Source: Cyanobacteriota bacterium
GTDB lineage: Bacteria; Cyanobacteriota; Cyanobacteriia; Cyanobacteriales; Nostocaceae
Direction: 5' to 3'
Assembly: GCA_046045965.1 (NCBI GenBank)
Contig: JBJOKS010000012.1
Span: 1 to 64,000, forward strand
Length of the DNA: 64,000 nucleotides
Part shown: positions 1 to 5,934 of the stretch, piece by piece
Position numbering within the stretch: position 1 is the first letter of the stretch
Layout of the letters: each line of letters starts with the position of its first letter
Program-made: the position numbers and the translations under genes
The notes under the pieces: model-generated
The model's database searches: none
What the model was told of the DNA's origin: nothing
The model's input: only the letters and a program-made list of their open reading frames with translations

Positions 1-109
1 CTTGAATTGAGATGGTATCTACATCATTCATCTCATTCAAAAAGCTTTCAGAATCTTGAAACAATTCAGAACCAGCAACGTTTAATTCAGAGAGTTGAAT
101 ACTTGCCAT
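1..109 (-). CDS. 5' part of a double-glycine-leader precursor peptide gene (runs off the left edge of the window)
   Basis: Bases 1-127 are identical to 408-534, covering the RBS (AGGAGG) and leader-coding part of the 83-aa ORF; ATG at 109. Confidence 0.75.
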   Translation of the reverse strand, partial: MASIQLSELNVAGSELFQDSESFLNEMNDVDTISIQ

Positions 110-264
110 AATTTCCTCCTAAAAGACTTGAGTTGTGGGAGCGTTAAGTTAGGTTTTACTTAATCGCTATTTCGATTGTGATTAATTGCTGAATTTGCTA
201 GGCTCTCCTGATTAATTACTAATCAAAATAGACCTATCTAGCTGATGATTTGATTACAAAGCTA

Positions 265-516
265 TTAGTAGCCGTAGCCGTGCTTAGAATCATCGCTGAA
301 TGATTTAGCTATAGATACAGCGGTATCAATAGCAAAACCTAATAACACAAATTCCTTACCTTTAATGCTGTAGTCAACTAATTTGGAGAACTGAGAAGCA
401 GCACCACCTTGAATTGAGATGGTATCTACATCATTCATCTCATTCAAAAAGCTTTCAGAATCTTGAAACAATTCAGAACCAGCAACGTTTAATTCAGAGA
501 GTTGAATACTTGCCAT
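265..516 (-). CDS. Putative bacteriocin/RiPP-like precursor with a double-glycine leader
   Basis: Strong SD AGGAGG; leader MASIQLSEL..GSELFQDSESFLNEM..ISIQGG followed by a 45-aa core. Confidence 0.75.
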   Translation of the reverse strand: MASIQLSELNVAGSELFQDSESFLNEMNDVDTISIQGGAASQFSKLVDYSIKGKEFVLLGFAIDTAVSIAKSFSDDSKHGYGY

Positions 517-623
517 AATTTCCTCCTAAAAGACGTGACTTGTCTTCAGTAATTAGAGTTGAACAGTTGAGTTGTCGTTTCCTTAACTGTTACTACTATT
601 TTTATTTAAAGATTTTCCAAAAA

Positions 624-672
624 TCAAGGCTTTGAACACTATTTACAGGACAGAAATAACGTGATTTTGTCT
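624..672 (-). promoter_or_regulatory. Conserved promoter block with imperfect palindrome GACAGAA-N9-TTTTGTC and a TTGA -35-like element
   Basis: Aligns without gaps to 1162-1210 with identical spacing. Confidence 0.55.
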
Positions 673-718
673 TTTTTATCAACTGATATTGTGCTAGTTC
701 AATAAAATTGTCATATCT

Positions 719-754
719 AAAAAAAGAGTGCTTTGATAAAATATCAAAACACCC
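719..754 (-). terminator. Intrinsic terminator downstream of the 78-aa ORF
   Basis: Minus strand GGGTGTTTTGATA-TTT-TATCAAAGCACTC followed by a T tract. Confidence 0.65.
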
Positions 755-825
755 TTTACAAATTAGCTGGATTTTCATGATGGAGCCGTCAAATAATGCC
801 CAATTTTAGTCTTTATAGACAGCTA

Positions 826-1062
826 TTAAAATTCAAATTCTTGCTGCAAAAGGGCATAATTTTCATTTAGCTCTTTCTGCCAGGAATCAATCCTAGTATC
901 TAGTGATTGCAGTCCTGTGGATGAGTTCCTGCGCTCACGTGAAATTGGTTCTCTTCTTCTTCTGATACCACCCTGGATATGATTCATATCTTCAGAATTT
1001 AGGTCATTGAGAATTTCTGTGTCAATGCTTGGTTTTAGGTCATCAATTCTTATGCTTACCAT
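826..1062 (-). CDS. Putative double-glycine-leader precursor peptide with an Arg-rich core
   Basis: SD GGAGGTG; leader ...ILNDLNSEDMNHIQGG followed by IRRRREPISRERR. Confidence 0.65.
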   Translation of the reverse strand: MVSIRIDDLKPSIDTEILNDLNSEDMNHIQGGIRRRREPISRERRNSSTGLQSLDTRIDSWQKELNENYALLQQEFEF

Positions 1063-1210: not shown

Positions 1211-1289
1211 GTGAAACTGATAGTTTTTTATAAATCCCAGCTTCTATAACTAAAGGCGCAGTTATTCGTGTCTATACCATAAAAAACAA

Positions 1290-1321
1290 AATTCCCGACT
1301 TTTATAAGAAGTCGAGAATCT
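1290..1321. repeat. Dispersed hairpin repeat (CCCGACTT...AAGTCG[G/A]GA), probably REP/terminator-like
   Basis: Related copies or half copies near 23718-23756, 61323-61334, 62060-62071 and 63831-63862, all at gene 3' ends. Confidence 0.6.
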
Positions 1322-1340: not shown

Positions 1341-2840
1341 TTATTTCTGTGCTTGGGTTTGGGAACCGGGAATAGTTACATCTATTGGTGTCACCGTAGC
1401 TGCTAACTGGGTTAATGGTGGTTTAATAGCGGTTTGATTTCCTACTACTAGGGTGACGAGATTTTCTGGTTTGAGGTATTTTTTCGCTACTTTCTGTACA
1501 TCTGCTGTTGTGGTTGCGGTGACAGCTTTTTGATAACGAAACAGAAAATCAGCGGGATAACCATAATATTCGTAGCGCATCAACCGGGATAAAGTTTGGC
1601 TGGGGTCTTGAAAATTGAATACAAAAGAATTGAGAGTAGATTCTTTGGCATAATTTAATTCTTTTGCTGTCACCGGTTGATTTTGGATCCGTTTAATTTC
1701 GGTTTGCAAGGCGTTGACAAATTGTACTGTAGCATCAGAACGGGTTTGTCCACCGGCGATGAACATTCCCGGATAATCGAAACGGGGACTCCAGGAACCG
1801 TATACAGAATAAGCTAAACCTTGACGCGATCGCACTTCATTAAATAAGCGTCCCCCAAACCCATTTAACACCCCATTCATTACATCTAAGGCTGCATAGT
1901 CAGGACTATCGAACTTTCCACCCAGATGTCCCATGAGAATGTTACTTTGGGTGAGTTGGGGTTGGTTGACAAAAAATACACCACCTAAATTAGCTGGTGA
2001 CACTTCTGGTAACTGCGTTTTAGCGATTTTGGGGTTGGGTTTCCAGTCACCTAACTTAGTTTGAATGAGCGATCGCATTTTTTGGGGGTTAAAATCGCCG
2101 ACAATTCCCAAAATCATATTATTGGGATGAAAATATTGCTGGTAGAATTTCTGTACATCCTCACGGCTAATTTTATCCAGAGTCGCATATTCTACTGTGC
2201 GAGCATAAGGGCTATCCTGTCCATAGATTAATTTTCTAAACTCCCGACTAGCGATACTGCTAGGATCATCATTGCGACGAGCAATACCACCCTTAGCCTG
2301 AGTTTTAATCAAATCTAACTTTTCTTGAGCAAAGGCTGGTTCTCGCAACACCTCCGCAAACAACCCAAACACCGTTTCTAAATCTTCAGTCAAACTATCA
2401 AAACTAGCACTACCAGTAGCTTCAGCAATATCGGTTTCTACAGATGCGGCTTTTTGTTCCAAAATCTCATTTAATTGATCAGGCGAATGCTTGATAGTTC
2501 CACCTGTCCGCATCAGTGAACCAACAACATCAGCTAACCCGGCCTGCTCACCTGCTTCCAAACGGCTTCCGGTTTTGACAAGTGTTGTCCCACTTACCAA
2601 AGGTAACTCATGATCCTCCATTAAATAGACAACCAAGCCGTTATCTAGGACAAACCGTTCATACTTAGGTAGCTTAATCTCCGACACAGGCGTAAACTGT
2701 AAATCGGTGTAATGCTTTGCTGCTGCTGTCGCTACCCAAGAAAAATTAAAAGTCAACAAAAAAGCCACAACCAAAGCGGAAATAAACCGCCATCTCTTAG
2801 AAAATTTCAGTGAAAACTTCAAGTTTTTACCCTTCACCAT
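1341..2840 (-). CDS. M16 family (pitrilysin-like) peptidase, non-catalytic-type subunit, secreted
   Basis: M16 C-terminal motifs (SRLFNEVR-like RLFNEVRSRQGLAY); no HxxEH; N-terminal signal peptide. Confidence 0.9.
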   Translation of the reverse strand: MVKGKNLKFSLKFSKRWRFISALVVAFLLTFNFSWVATAAAKHYTDLQFTPVSEIKLPKYERFVLDNGLVVYLMEDHELPLVSGTTLVKTGSRLEAGEQAGLADVVGSLMRTGGTIKHSPDQLNEILEQKAASVETDIAEATGSASFDSLTEDLETVFGLFAEVLREPAFAQEKLDLIKTQAKGGIARRNDDPSSIASREFRKLIYGQDSPYARTVEYATLDKISREDVQKFYQQYFHPNNMILGIVGDFNPQKMRSLIQTKLGDWKPNPKIAKTQLPEVSPANLGGVFFVNQPQLTQSNILMGHLGGKFDSPDYAALDVMNGVLNGFGGRLFNEVRSRQGLAYSVYGSWSPRFDYPGMFIAGGQTRSDATVQFVNALQTEIKRIQNQPVTAKELNYAKESTLNSFVFNFQDPSQTLSRLMRYEYYGYPADFLFRYQKAVTATTTADVQKVAKKYLKPENLVTLVVGNQTAIKPPLTQLAATVTPIDVTIPGSQTQAQK

Positions 2841-2867
2841 TTTTTTATTTCTATCCTCTATTTTTTA

Positions 2868-2946
2868 ACAGGGAACAGGGAACAGGGAACAGGGAACAGG
2901 GAACAGGAAACAGAATTTTTGACTTTTGACTTTTGACTTTTGACTT
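2868..2946. repeat. STRR 7-bp tandem repeats (AACAGGG)n and (TTTTGAC)n
   Basis: Directly visible. Confidence 0.9.
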
Positions 2947-2968
2947 GATTCTCCCCAGTCCCCAGTCC

Positions 2969-4663
2969 TTAACCTTGCTTCGACAACAACTTACCAACGG
3001 TACGATTTTCCGGGGTAAAAGTTGCCTGTGCTACCCGTTGAATATCCGCAGGTGTGACTGCTGCAATATCCTCTAACTGTTTAAACAAATTCCGCCACGA
3101 GCCGGTTTTGACTTCATATTCCAACAACTGCTGCGCCATACCCATATTAGAGTCGAGACTACGCAATAAACCGGCCCTGGCTTGGGTTTTCACACGCTGT
3201 AATTCTGTTGCGGATACAGGTTGTGTTTTCAATTTTTCAATTTCTTTACTGAGAGCGATCGCTAAATCATCAACTGTGTGACCGGGAGCAGTTAGGGCAT
3301 AAAATAACATCAAATTGGGGTATTTATCACCGGGGAAGCCGCTAATACCCTGAGCAGCCAACGCTATCCGCTGTGTTTCTATCAAAGACTTATACAGTCG
3401 TGAAGTGCGGCCATCACTCAATAAACTGCCAATGATGTCATAAACTGCATTATCAGCATCGGTGATACCTGGACGGTGATAACCTTCAAAATACCAAGGT
3501 TGAGAAGGTAGCTCTAAAGTAACTTCCCTGGTTGCAGTTTGTTTTGGTTCTGGGGTAATTTTTGCTTGTGCTTTGGGTTTAGCCTGATAACGTCCAAAGT
3601 AAATTTTGGCTAATTTTTTGACTTCATCAGGGTTAACATCACCAACAACAGCGATGGTTAAATTGCTGGGGACATAGTAATTCTCAAAAAACTGCTTGAC
3701 ATTTGCTGGTGTTAAGTTGCGGATATCTTCGTCATAACCTATTACTGGTCTTCTGTAGGGATGAACTTTGAAAGCAGTATCCACAAATTTTTCCACCATT
3801 GAACCGACGGGAGAATTATCAACTCGCATCCGTCGTTCTTCCAAAATTACATCTTTTTCTTTATAAAATTCTCGAAATACAGGATCTAAAAATCGCTCTG
3901 ACTCCAAAGACATCCACAGTTCCAACTTATTAGCAGGAAAACTATAAAAATAACGGGTAGCTTCGCTGGAAGTAGTGGCGTTTAAACCGACACCCCCCGC
4001 TTGCTCAACAATTTTGCCCATTTCATTTTGCTTAACTAGCTTGACTGCTTGAGCTTCTACTGACTTAAACTCGGCTTCCAACTTTGCTAAGTCGTCTTGT
4101 TTGTTTTTGGTTTTAGCCGTTCTAATTTGAGCATCTAACTGTTCTAAGCGGTCTAGTAATGGTTTTTCGGCTTTGTAGTCGGTTGTACCAATGCGTCTTG
4201 TCCCTTTAAAAGCCAAATGTTCTAAAAAGTGCGCTACTCCTGTTTGTCCATCTGGTTCATCTATGCCTCCAACATCAGCATAGGTGACAAAGGAAACTAC
4301 TGGTGCTTGATGTCGTTCTAAAACAATGAATTTCAAACCATTATCGAGGCGAAATTCTGTTAACTGGTTCACCACCCGATCTAAATAGGGTTGAATAGAA
4401 GTTTGGCTGGGTTGCAGTGCTATAGCGGCTTGGGGAGTCAAACCTAAACAAAATATCATCAACGCCAACGCAACTGACAACAGACGAGTGCCAAAATGGG
4501 AAAAAGGCGATTGGAAATCGCTACTACACAAACGAAGTCCAGATGGTGCGTGGACTGGGGAAATATCTTCGGTTTTCAACCCACGTAGGTGGGTTTTGTC
4601 TGTGTAGCTGTGATTTCCAATCGCTTTGTTTAACCTTAACCAATGCAAAATCGAATGTTTCAT
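2969..4663 (-). CDS. M16 family zinc peptidase, catalytic subunit
   Basis: HFLEH inverted zinc motif; start uncertain (ORF extends to 4771; ATG at 4663 preferred). Confidence 0.9.
   Translation of the reverse strand: MKHSILHWLRLNKAIGNHSYTDKTHLRGLKTEDISPVHAPSGLRLCSSDFQSPFSHFGTRLLSVALALMIFCLGLTPQAAIALQPSQTSIQPYLDRVVNQLTEFRLDNGLKFIVLERHQAPVVSFVTYADVGGIDEPDGQTGVAHFLEHLAFKGTRRIGTTDYKAEKPLLDRLEQLDAQIRTAKTKNKQDDLAKLEAEFKSVEAQAVKLVKQNEMGKIVEQAGGVGLNATTSSEATRYFYSFPANKLELWMSLESERFLDPVFREFYKEKDVILEERRMRVDNSPVGSMVEKFVDTAFKVHPYRRPVIGYDEDIRNLTPANVKQFFENYYVPSNLTIAVVGDVNPDEVKKLAKIYFGRYQAKPKAQAKITPEPKQTATREVTLELPSQPWYFEGYHRPGITDADNAVYDIIGSLLSDGRTSRLYKSLIETQRIALAAQGISGFPGDKYPNLMLFYALTAPGHTVDDLAIALSKEIEKLKTQPVSATELQRVKTQARAGLLRSLDSNMGMAQQLLEYEVKTGSWRNLFKQLEDIAAVTPADIQRVAQATFTPENRTVGKLLSKQG
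4507..4624. mobile_element. Palindromic miniature repeat element within the 5' part of the M16 peptidase ORF
   Basis: 13-bp TIR GCGATTGGAAATC/GATTTCCAATCGC, internal hairpins, related copy at 12322-12436. Confidence 0.7.
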
Positions 4664-4814
4664 AGCAAAAATTAAAGTAAATTTACACTTCTTGAGAATT
4701 GGGTTAATTAGCAAACACAGCGTTAATCTTGTATTAAGCTTTTCGGGCTTTTTGGATTTGATGTTAGACAATATTGCTACAATTCGTGTTCCTGTGATAC
4801 AGCAATAACTACTT

Positions 4815-5458: not shown

Positions 5459-5490
5459 AATTATGAATTATGAATTATGAATTATGAATT
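5459..5490. repeat. STRR (AATTATG)n
   Basis: Directly visible. Confidence 0.85.
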
Positions 5491-5934
5491 CTAAATTATC
5501 TTCGCTTGTTGACTCCATTGTTGCACCAACTCAACTGCTGGACACAAATCACGACGCTGGAATGTTGCTACTTGCAAACGCATAATTTGTTTGTGTAATC
5601 TGTGAGTGGGAATTTCCCCTAACTGCGTCACCGAAATCACACCAGCATGAAGTAATAAACCACAATATTGAGTTCCCACACTGGGAAGACGTGCGAGATC
5701 AGCCAAAGCTATCCATTTACTCACATATTGAAGATTTACTTGTAATTTACTGGCTAATGCAAGTTTAGCTGCTGGTGTTTTCCCTTGTTTAACTAAATCC
5801 AGTGTACTTTTAATCTCACAACTTTGCAATTTTAAAAGTTCTTCTTGACTTAATCCTGGTAATTTTTCAATCGGCCAGTCACAAGGTTTTAAGACACTTT
5901 TATTACTTTTAATCTTTATCTGTTTCGTGTTCAT
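5491..5934 (-). CDS. DUF4332 domain protein (HhH-like)
   Basis: WIALADLARLPSVGTQYCGLLLHAGV motif. Confidence 0.8.
   Translation of the reverse strand: MNTKQIKIKSNKSVLKPCDWPIEKLPGLSQEELLKLQSCEIKSTLDLVKQGKTPAAKLALASKLQVNLQYVSKWIALADLARLPSVGTQYCGLLLHAGVISVTQLGEIPTHRLHKQIMRLQVATFQRRDLCPAVELVQQWSQQAKII

Follow-up and report, generated by a model that had tools for sequence, protein, structure and literature searches.

Tandem genes for short peptides with a double-glycine (GG) leader are known from cyanobacteria in group II clusters (Wang 2011; PMC3140520), which combine the tandem precursors with a long C39-ABC protein bearing a cNMP domain, HlyD, a SurA/rotamase, a HetP-like gene and M16 peptidase genes. 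In Nostoc PCC 7120 these clusters list asl1930, CDS10 and asl1933-asl1938. Family 1A (Eyles 2021; PMC8153245), which is found in cyanobacteria only, holds 570 peptides from 183 clusters, with a GG leader and with multiple precursor genes ahead of those for an APH kinase and a HopA1 protein; the consulted parts of that paper describe its cores as highly variable and without conserved Ser, Thr or Cys, and its products as undetermined. An APH-fold kinase and a HopA1-fold lyase with the same catalytic residues form the LanK-LanY pairs of class V lanthipeptide and thioamitide pathways (CaoK-CaoY and TsaC-TsaD; PMC9486802, PMC8153245), for which the CaoK/CaoY mechanism has been given and a Cys-containing cyanobacterial type B noted (PMC9486802). 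A cNMP-C39-ABC exporter also adjoins a HetP-family gene at HetC/HetP of Nostoc PCC 7120 (PMC10986499). The literature searched, which included few subscription papers, yielded no characterised product, function or precursor mutant, and nothing in the material consulted demonstrates bacteriocin activity for group II clusters.

By sequence, the locus analysed here is a group II/Family 1A cluster, orthologous to clusters tabulated in 2011 and 2021. A PF17914 protein lies beside an APH/LxmK-like gene, short co-linear GG-leader peptides stand at the head of the operon, and a long C39-ABC protein with a CAP_ED/cNMP domain, HlyD, a SurA/rotamase, a HetP-like gene and M16 genes complete a layout that matches asl1930-asl1938 of Nostoc PCC 7120. 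We call its three types of precursor p1, p2 and p0. The 93, 73, 83 and 85 aa given by Wang equal the lengths of the HetP-, p0-, p1- and p2-type entries for PCC 7120 in the part of the Eyles table consulted, and from these lengths we infer that they are the same genes. Over 80 aa, our p1 shares 75% identity with a peptide at locus L055 that reads as Eyles TAE59458_1; with the p1 peptides of L071 it shares 49-55%, where Family 1A network 1 asks for at least 40%. The p2 peptide belongs to network 8 of Eyles dataset 2; it is less than 40% identical to the listed members, and its core fits their profile (L071, L058 and L082 hold p2-type members listed by Eyles). Exact N-terminal words of p1, p2 and p0 matched 0 rows of the Eyles peptide table, which means that homologues, and not these exact proteins, are found there. 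The earlier note on this DNA had called the system uncharacterised, which holds for the chemistry, no characterised product having been found, but not for the cluster, whose type and close homologues are tabulated (PMC3140520, PMC8153245). The cluster type is described but chemically uncharacterised, and the locus is an ordinary member of it.

The locus differs from these systems in several respects. Within Family 1A, p1 belongs to a sub-family with a conserved core motif, two nearly invariant serines and a fixed order of the three precursor types; the motif is not mentioned in the literature searched, although Figs S26-S29 of PMC8153245 may already show it. Compared with group II, there are two to three p1 copies here and five in PCC 7120, and the M16 pair that Wang linked to the group is near-universal in cyanobacteria. 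Unlike class V loci, this one has cores without Cys, a GG-type leader with a C39 exporter, and no cyclase, Cys decarboxylase or reductase. Finally, in the consulted part of PMC10986499 hetC has neither HlyD nor a GG-leader gene nearby, whereas the present locus has both together with modifying enzymes.

Precursor genes at the contig end

The window, by which we mean the whole stretch of 64,000 nucleotides, is positions 1-64000 of contig C12 in an assembly of 107 contigs, and its first base is the first base of that contig. The complete p1 gene (265-516, minus strand; Shine-Dalgarno AGGAGG at 522-527) encodes 83 aa, with a leader of residues 1-38 ending in GG (403-516) and a Cys-free core of 45 aa (268-402) that carries K52-x-x-E55 and K71-S72-F-S74 and is predicted to be helical. 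A terminator-like hairpin (723-757, minus strand; consensus match only) separates the p1 array from the precursor-like gene p2 (826-1062, minus strand; Shine-Dalgarno GGAGGTG at 1068-1074), whose 78 aa comprise a leader of residues 1-32 ending in GG, an Arg-rich segment and an amphipathic, heptad-like tail. At the contig edge, an open reading frame at 2-109 (minus strand; Shine-Dalgarno AGGAGG at 115-120) is the leader part of a further gene, p1a, whose GG and core lie on contig C77 (7443-7691). The co-oriented small genes with clear Shine-Dalgarno sites, the IQGG ending of both complete leaders and the absence of Cys from the p1 core, all pointed out in the earlier note, are borne out, and the p2 core also lacks Cys.

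A leader profile of the kind that the note had proposed, made from 30 sequences of other genomes, recovers both p1 (E 4.7e-15) and p2 (E 2.4e-4) when the 75,067 stop-to-stop segments of this genome are searched with it. The leaders of p2 and p1 share 14 identities in 32 aligned residues, a score reached by 0 of 500 shuffles, and are homologous; their cores are unrelated, the score being reached by 151 of 500 shuffles. The p2 core, polar and Arg-rich and then amphipathic, scores 21.4 bits against a profile of 34 other p2-type cores (shuffle maximum 7.7). Judged by these comparisons, p2 represents a conserved gene type distinct from p1, has a leader of its own, is of the Eyles network 8 type and stands as the conserved first gene of the array. 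Contig C77 carries p1', 92% identical to p1, and p0, of 71 aa, with a core homologous to that of p1 (0 of 500 shuffles reach the score). No Cys occurs in the p0, p1 or p2 core. The p1 core has a hydrophobic stretch of 15 residues between the invariant Glu and Lys, as in a hydrophobic amphipathic helix, and AlphaFold2 models it as one helix (residues 43-77, mean pLDDT 66.8).

Pfam and NCBIfam hold no family for p1, p0 or p2. Their named GG-precursor families (CTB, Nif11, NHLP and others) gave no match over cut-off for p1, p2 matched lantibiotic leaders below threshold throughout, and the precursor models had 0 matches among 67 p1-type members. The ESM Atlas returned unnamed cyanobacterial clusters only (best value 0.95 for p1, and 0.86 for p2, a lead only), with the CTB family low at 0.81-0.82, and Foldseek found no match in the PDB for the low-confidence, two-helix model of p1. 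CTB bacteriocins studied under P limitation (PMC9846622, seen in part) were considered and belong to another family. A promoter scan performed at chance (5 found, 5.2 expected). Contigs from two RNA libraries (X6 and X7) cover p1 and p2 but not the intergenic DNA around 600-800 and 1200-1300, which is covered by DNA runs; contigs cannot show transcription, as DNA may be present, so this pattern is a weak hint only.

Bases 408-534 are an exact copy of bases 1-127, with the first mismatch at 128, as the earlier note had stated, and the note had named an assembly artefact as a possible source of this identity. The length of 127 does come from the assembly: exact 127-base matches elsewhere are found at 129 of the 214 contig ends, which indicates the overlap used by the assembler, and window bases 1-127, with which one copy of the tandem unit opens in the window, are also the last 127 bases of C77. 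The identity itself is real and longer, since window 236-534, a whole p1 gene with its ribosome-binding site, equals the end of C77 over 299 bp. Because this stretch takes in the core, and because p1a and p1 have 0 nucleotide differences across leader and core, the duplicated unit is the whole gene unit of 407 bp. The duplicated leader with unrelated cores that had been proposed does not stand: the p1a core is identical to that of p1, and p2 does not carry the duplicated leader.

The spacer at 128-235 differs at 8 bases from the matching spacer on C77, so that it derives from real reads and not simply from copying by the assembler. It is the sole evidence in the source genome for a third tandem copy of p1 type and, by sequence, may be either such a copy or a strain variant. 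We compared 8 of 23 sequence runs of related strains at the locus, none of which exactly matches the window strain. Single contigs connect a spacer of the C77 type, by way of one p1 gene, to unique sequence of the window (X6, 173-582; X5, 137-585), and C77-type letters stand at bases 228-233 in 6 of 6 covering runs among the matches listed for the 8. This implies that the related strains carry p1' plus one p1. Contig depth is unusable as proof of p1 copy number. The interior of p1 arrays is broken or filled with N in other assemblies too (L034:10517-10864, L090, L078, L084 and L119), which indicates that p1 copy numbers are often under-counted.

On its other side the array is flanked by a pair of M16 peptidase genes (1341-4771, minus strand), of which only the upstream one has HxxEH, followed by a terminator-like hairpin matched by consensus only (1289-1321, minus strand). 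This constant flank of the cluster was considered as a dedicated maturation protease and rejected as a specific link: the pair occurs in 37 of 41 genomes, including 14 of the 16 that belong to other families and lack a kinase match. Being near-universal and single-copy, it is a neighbour and probably not a dedicated part. Tandem 7-bp repeats (AACAGGG, TTTTGAC, AATTATG) occupy intergenic DNA at window 2867-2944 and 5459-5492, and we take them to be typical of Nostocales STRR elements.

Kinase, lyase and exporter genes

The earlier note expected a transporter and modifying genes to the left of the window, and this is where they lie. Contig C39, C77 and C12 are linked in that order by exact 127-base overlaps, and the same gene order is contiguous in relatives. 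Beyond the window the run continues on C77 with p1a, p1', p0, an APH-fold kinase, a HopA1-family protein and a HetP-family gene; on the opposite strand follow PpiC, HlyD and an ABC transporter. The coding sequence of this transporter spans C39 and C77 with an in-frame overlap, its N-terminal cNMP and C39 peptidase domains being at the end of contig C39.

The HopA1-family protein matches PF17914 (E 5e-66), and its only PDB match is the lyase 9DK1 (E 4e-7). It keeps the lyase motif R...K-x9-R-x6-Y with spacing 31/10/7, compared with 32/10/7 in CaoY, whose catalytic residues are Arg187, Lys219, Arg229 and Tyr236 (PMC9486802). The kinase matches the LxmK model at E 3e-21, its 75.8 bits being far below the equivalog cut-off of 315, and has no sequence match in the PDB; the motifs HNDLKLNN and DWE are kept here and in most related loci. 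By these motifs the two proteins are a putative LanK/LanY-like pair. The HetP-family gene scores 100.5 bits against NF037966 (cut-off 45), HlyD is over its cut-off, PpiC matches rotamase, and C39, cNMP and ABC membrane domains are all matched, with the Cys, His and Asp motifs of the C39 domain kept. We found no cyclase, Cys decarboxylase or reductase among the ORFs of the locus; a genome-wide LanC search gave 0 matches, but its control gave none either.

The genome has 6 matches to other C39 proteins. It also has a second kinase/HopA1 pair (L053:9176-11547, G000:C15), which adjoins a TnpB-like gene and beside which no precursor was found; its kinase falls in a different clade that is well supported and occurs throughout the family, and the pair may have a non-RiPP substrate. 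Given these other C39 proteins and the second pair, pairing by proximity is not proof. An HTH gene (L003:13015-13680; HTH_32/33/28, IS630-like domains) lies directly upstream of the exporter, is 58-94% conserved in related clusters and is probably a domesticated regulator.

Gene order and core conservation in related loci

We surveyed 19 loci of related genomes together with the second kinase/HopA1 pair of the source genome. The kinase was matched in 23 of 24 genomes from within the family and in 2 of 16 from other families. Cores of p1 or p0 type occur in 12 of the 19 loci, and the kinases of these loci group with the C77 kinase: the 13 kinases beside such cores form one clade (support 96/89) among 32 rows. 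A GTDB scan with a p1 leader word then gave 176 relatives, and the analysis covered the best 78 loci in a ranking by likeness to p1; they hold 371 precursors (253 p1, 41 p0, 35 p2 and 42 untyped). Since loci were selected by a p1 word and core types were assigned by profiles built from the same families, the conservation figures that follow are inflated.

In the best 78 loci the gene order is the M16 pair, p2, one to seven p1 genes, p0, kinase, lyase and HetP, after which the exporter genes come head-on. In 55 of the 71 loci that contain p1/p0 cores, the next genes downstream, inside the 8-kb flank, are the kinase and the lyase, and the precursors share the strand of the kinase; of the same 71, p0 is found in 41, p2 in 33, an M16 gene in 38 and an aldo-keto reductase in 0. 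By sequence, many genera share p2, p1 and p0 as three constant types whose order does not change. In the DNA examined, the other 16 of the 71 are without enzymes: 3 are cut by contig ends, and 13 appear to be satellite arrays of p1-type genes with no kinase, lyase or exporter nearby (L087, L096, L099, L103-L105, L108, L113, L117, L126, L128, L129 and L131).

The p1 core is Cys-free, is predicted to be helical and has the motif K-x-x-E-x15-K-S-[FY]-S. An alignment of 234 distinct p1 cores gives a conservation of 98, 95, 93, 99, 99 and 99% for K, E, K, S, F/Y and S, and the exact K-x-x-E-x15-K-S-[FY] is present in 204; Cys occurs in 2 of the 253 p1-type cores, and the Ser/Thr fraction is moderate (0.15-0.18). 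Residue G37 is invariant across 67 p1 sequences, so that the GG position, whose loss in homologues the earlier note would have counted against its proposal, is conserved. For the 54 loci with several p1 copies, core identity is 0.81 within a locus and 0.44 between loci, compared with 0.90 and 0.70 for the leader. With a threshold of E 1e-22, a profile of full-length p1 finds matches in 93 of 200 family genomes and in none of the other 107. In an order-wide draw it matches 6 of 7 family genomes and 0 of 143 others, kin not being independent, and in the genomes searched the p1 family is confined to the heterocyst-forming family.

Some further peptide genes came to light in the same surveys. Sister clusters (L045-L049, L051, L052, L123 and L130) have Ser/Thr-rich, Cys-free cores, a second PpiC and, after the lyase, an extra gene of 337-354 aa that in L047 is an aldo-keto reductase; this gene is a candidate new dehydroamino-acid reductase. 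An orphan gene (L002:1364-1579, G000:C3) joins the same type of leader (E 6.5e-9) to a His-rich core beside a HAD-like gene, with no enzymes nearby, and possibly encodes a metal-binding exported peptide. Two tandem small genes with GG-type leaders (G000:C42:15182-15889) have cores ending in NK-x-x-T-V-D-[YF]-S; genes like them sit between PpiC and HlyD in L037, L085, L093 and L097, and one gene of this type reaches E 0.008 with the leader profile.

A proposed pathway and its alternatives

We consider it probable that window bases 1-1062 are the first genes of a conserved Nostocales array that continues to the kinase/lyase pair and the C39 exporter, and that this array yields secreted, Cys-free helices with dehydrated serines. 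Within this explanation the gene content, order, catalytic motifs and core conservation are those observed above, and the processing is inferred; as no characterised cyanobacterial kinase/HopA1 pair or product was found, every step of it is drawn by analogy to actinobacterial enzymes. The shared leader helix would dock on the LanK-like kinase, which would phosphorylate core serines, most likely the nearly invariant ones of K-S-[FY]-S, and the HopA1/LanY-like lyase would eliminate the phosphate to give dehydroalanine; the pair on C77 thus probably works like CaoK-CaoY and TsaC-TsaD. The absence of Cys, cyclase and reductase from the locus implies that the dehydroalanines would stay as they are and that no lanthionine or AviCys rings would form. 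The cNMP-C39-ABC protein would then cut after GG and export the core through HlyD, with PpiC assisting. By this analogy the product would not be a lanthipeptide but likely a GG-cleaved, exported helix with dehydroalanines. The near-identity of the p1 copies suggests that they serve gene dosage rather than diversity, while p0 would be a divergent paralogue of the p1 core and p2 a distinct, constant partner peptide that shares the export signal. One report does not favour this pathway: the PCC 7120 homologue asl1933, which is specific to heterocyst formers, is not expressed after nitrogen step-down, according to the part of PMC4365693 consulted.

The peptides could instead leave through the C39 transporter unmodified, like class II bacteriocins or EbfG-like surface peptides, with the kinase and lyase acting elsewhere, for example on the adjacent HetP-family protein, or only phosphorylating. 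The unremarkable Ser/Thr content of a core that is a hydrophobic amphipathic helix, the 13 satellite arrays, and the kinase/HopA1 pair that forms its own clade and lacks adjacent precursors in the same genome are all consistent with this, and in S. elongatus GG peptides have a part in biofilm formation (PMC12267927, seen in part). We nevertheless judge it unlikely: in 55 loci the precursor genes immediately precede the kinase gene on its strand, conservation of the two terminal serines reaches 99%, and the clade of a kinase follows the type of core beside it.

Conservation of the cores also bears on the remaining readings. In a prochlorosin-like library, one leader would have been copied onto unrelated, fast-changing cores to give many compounds, much as the earlier note inferred from a constant leader with variable cores. 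Leaders are indeed more conserved than cores between loci, the p1 and p2 cores are unrelated, and Family 1A as a whole is described as highly variable in its cores (PMC8153245, seen in part), but the copy at 1-127 belongs to a gene whose core is identical to that of p1, cores within a locus resemble each other far more than cores of different loci, the motif and the order of types are fixed, and even the p2 core fits the profile of its own type. The whole gene was duplicated, and for this locus a variable-core library is largely refuted; we give it hardly any credence. Alternatively, the small proteins might stay inside the cell or bound to its membrane and regulate heterocyst development together with the HetP-family protein, with the GG leader as a relic or a docking tag. 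Their confinement to the heterocyst-forming family would fit such a role, as would the listing of asl1936 and asl1937 as Nostocales-specific (PMC2823733) and the advanced commitment that follows deletion of asl1930 (as cited in PMC9045159), both sources having been covered in part. The GG at a fixed position and the adjoining HlyD and C39 exporter with intact catalytic motifs speak against it, and the 107 family genomes with no match imply that the p1 family is not part of a universal heterocyst programme; we regard this role as very improbable.

Returning to the pathway of dehydration and export that we favour, a more far-reaching version of it can be put together, which we think quite unlikely to be right in all its parts. 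About half of the heterocyst formers would make a dosage-amplified, modified peptide from a fixed chromosomal locus, as a developmental or envelope-building signal and not as a weapon. Its Cys-free helix would form lysinoalanine cross-links between the invariant Lys and the dehydroalanine of K-S-F-S, with p1 (1-10 copies) as major subunit, its paralogue p0 as minor subunit and p2 as an Arg-rich helical partner, and it would be functionally tied to the co-located commitment regulator Asl1930. If true, it would give cyanobacterial LanK/LanY pairs their first product.

What is new here is that Family 1A, known for its variable cores, conceals a large sub-family in which core motif and gene order are fixed and which reaches nearly half of the 200 Nostocaceae-level genomes searched. 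The motif names Lys52, Glu55, Lys71, Ser72 and Ser74 of p1 as residues for a biochemical test, and asl1930-asl1938 provides a locus in a model organism for the first such test of a cyanobacterial LanK/LanY pair. In these cyanobacteria, the locus may also link a peptide pathway with a heterocyst-commitment gene.
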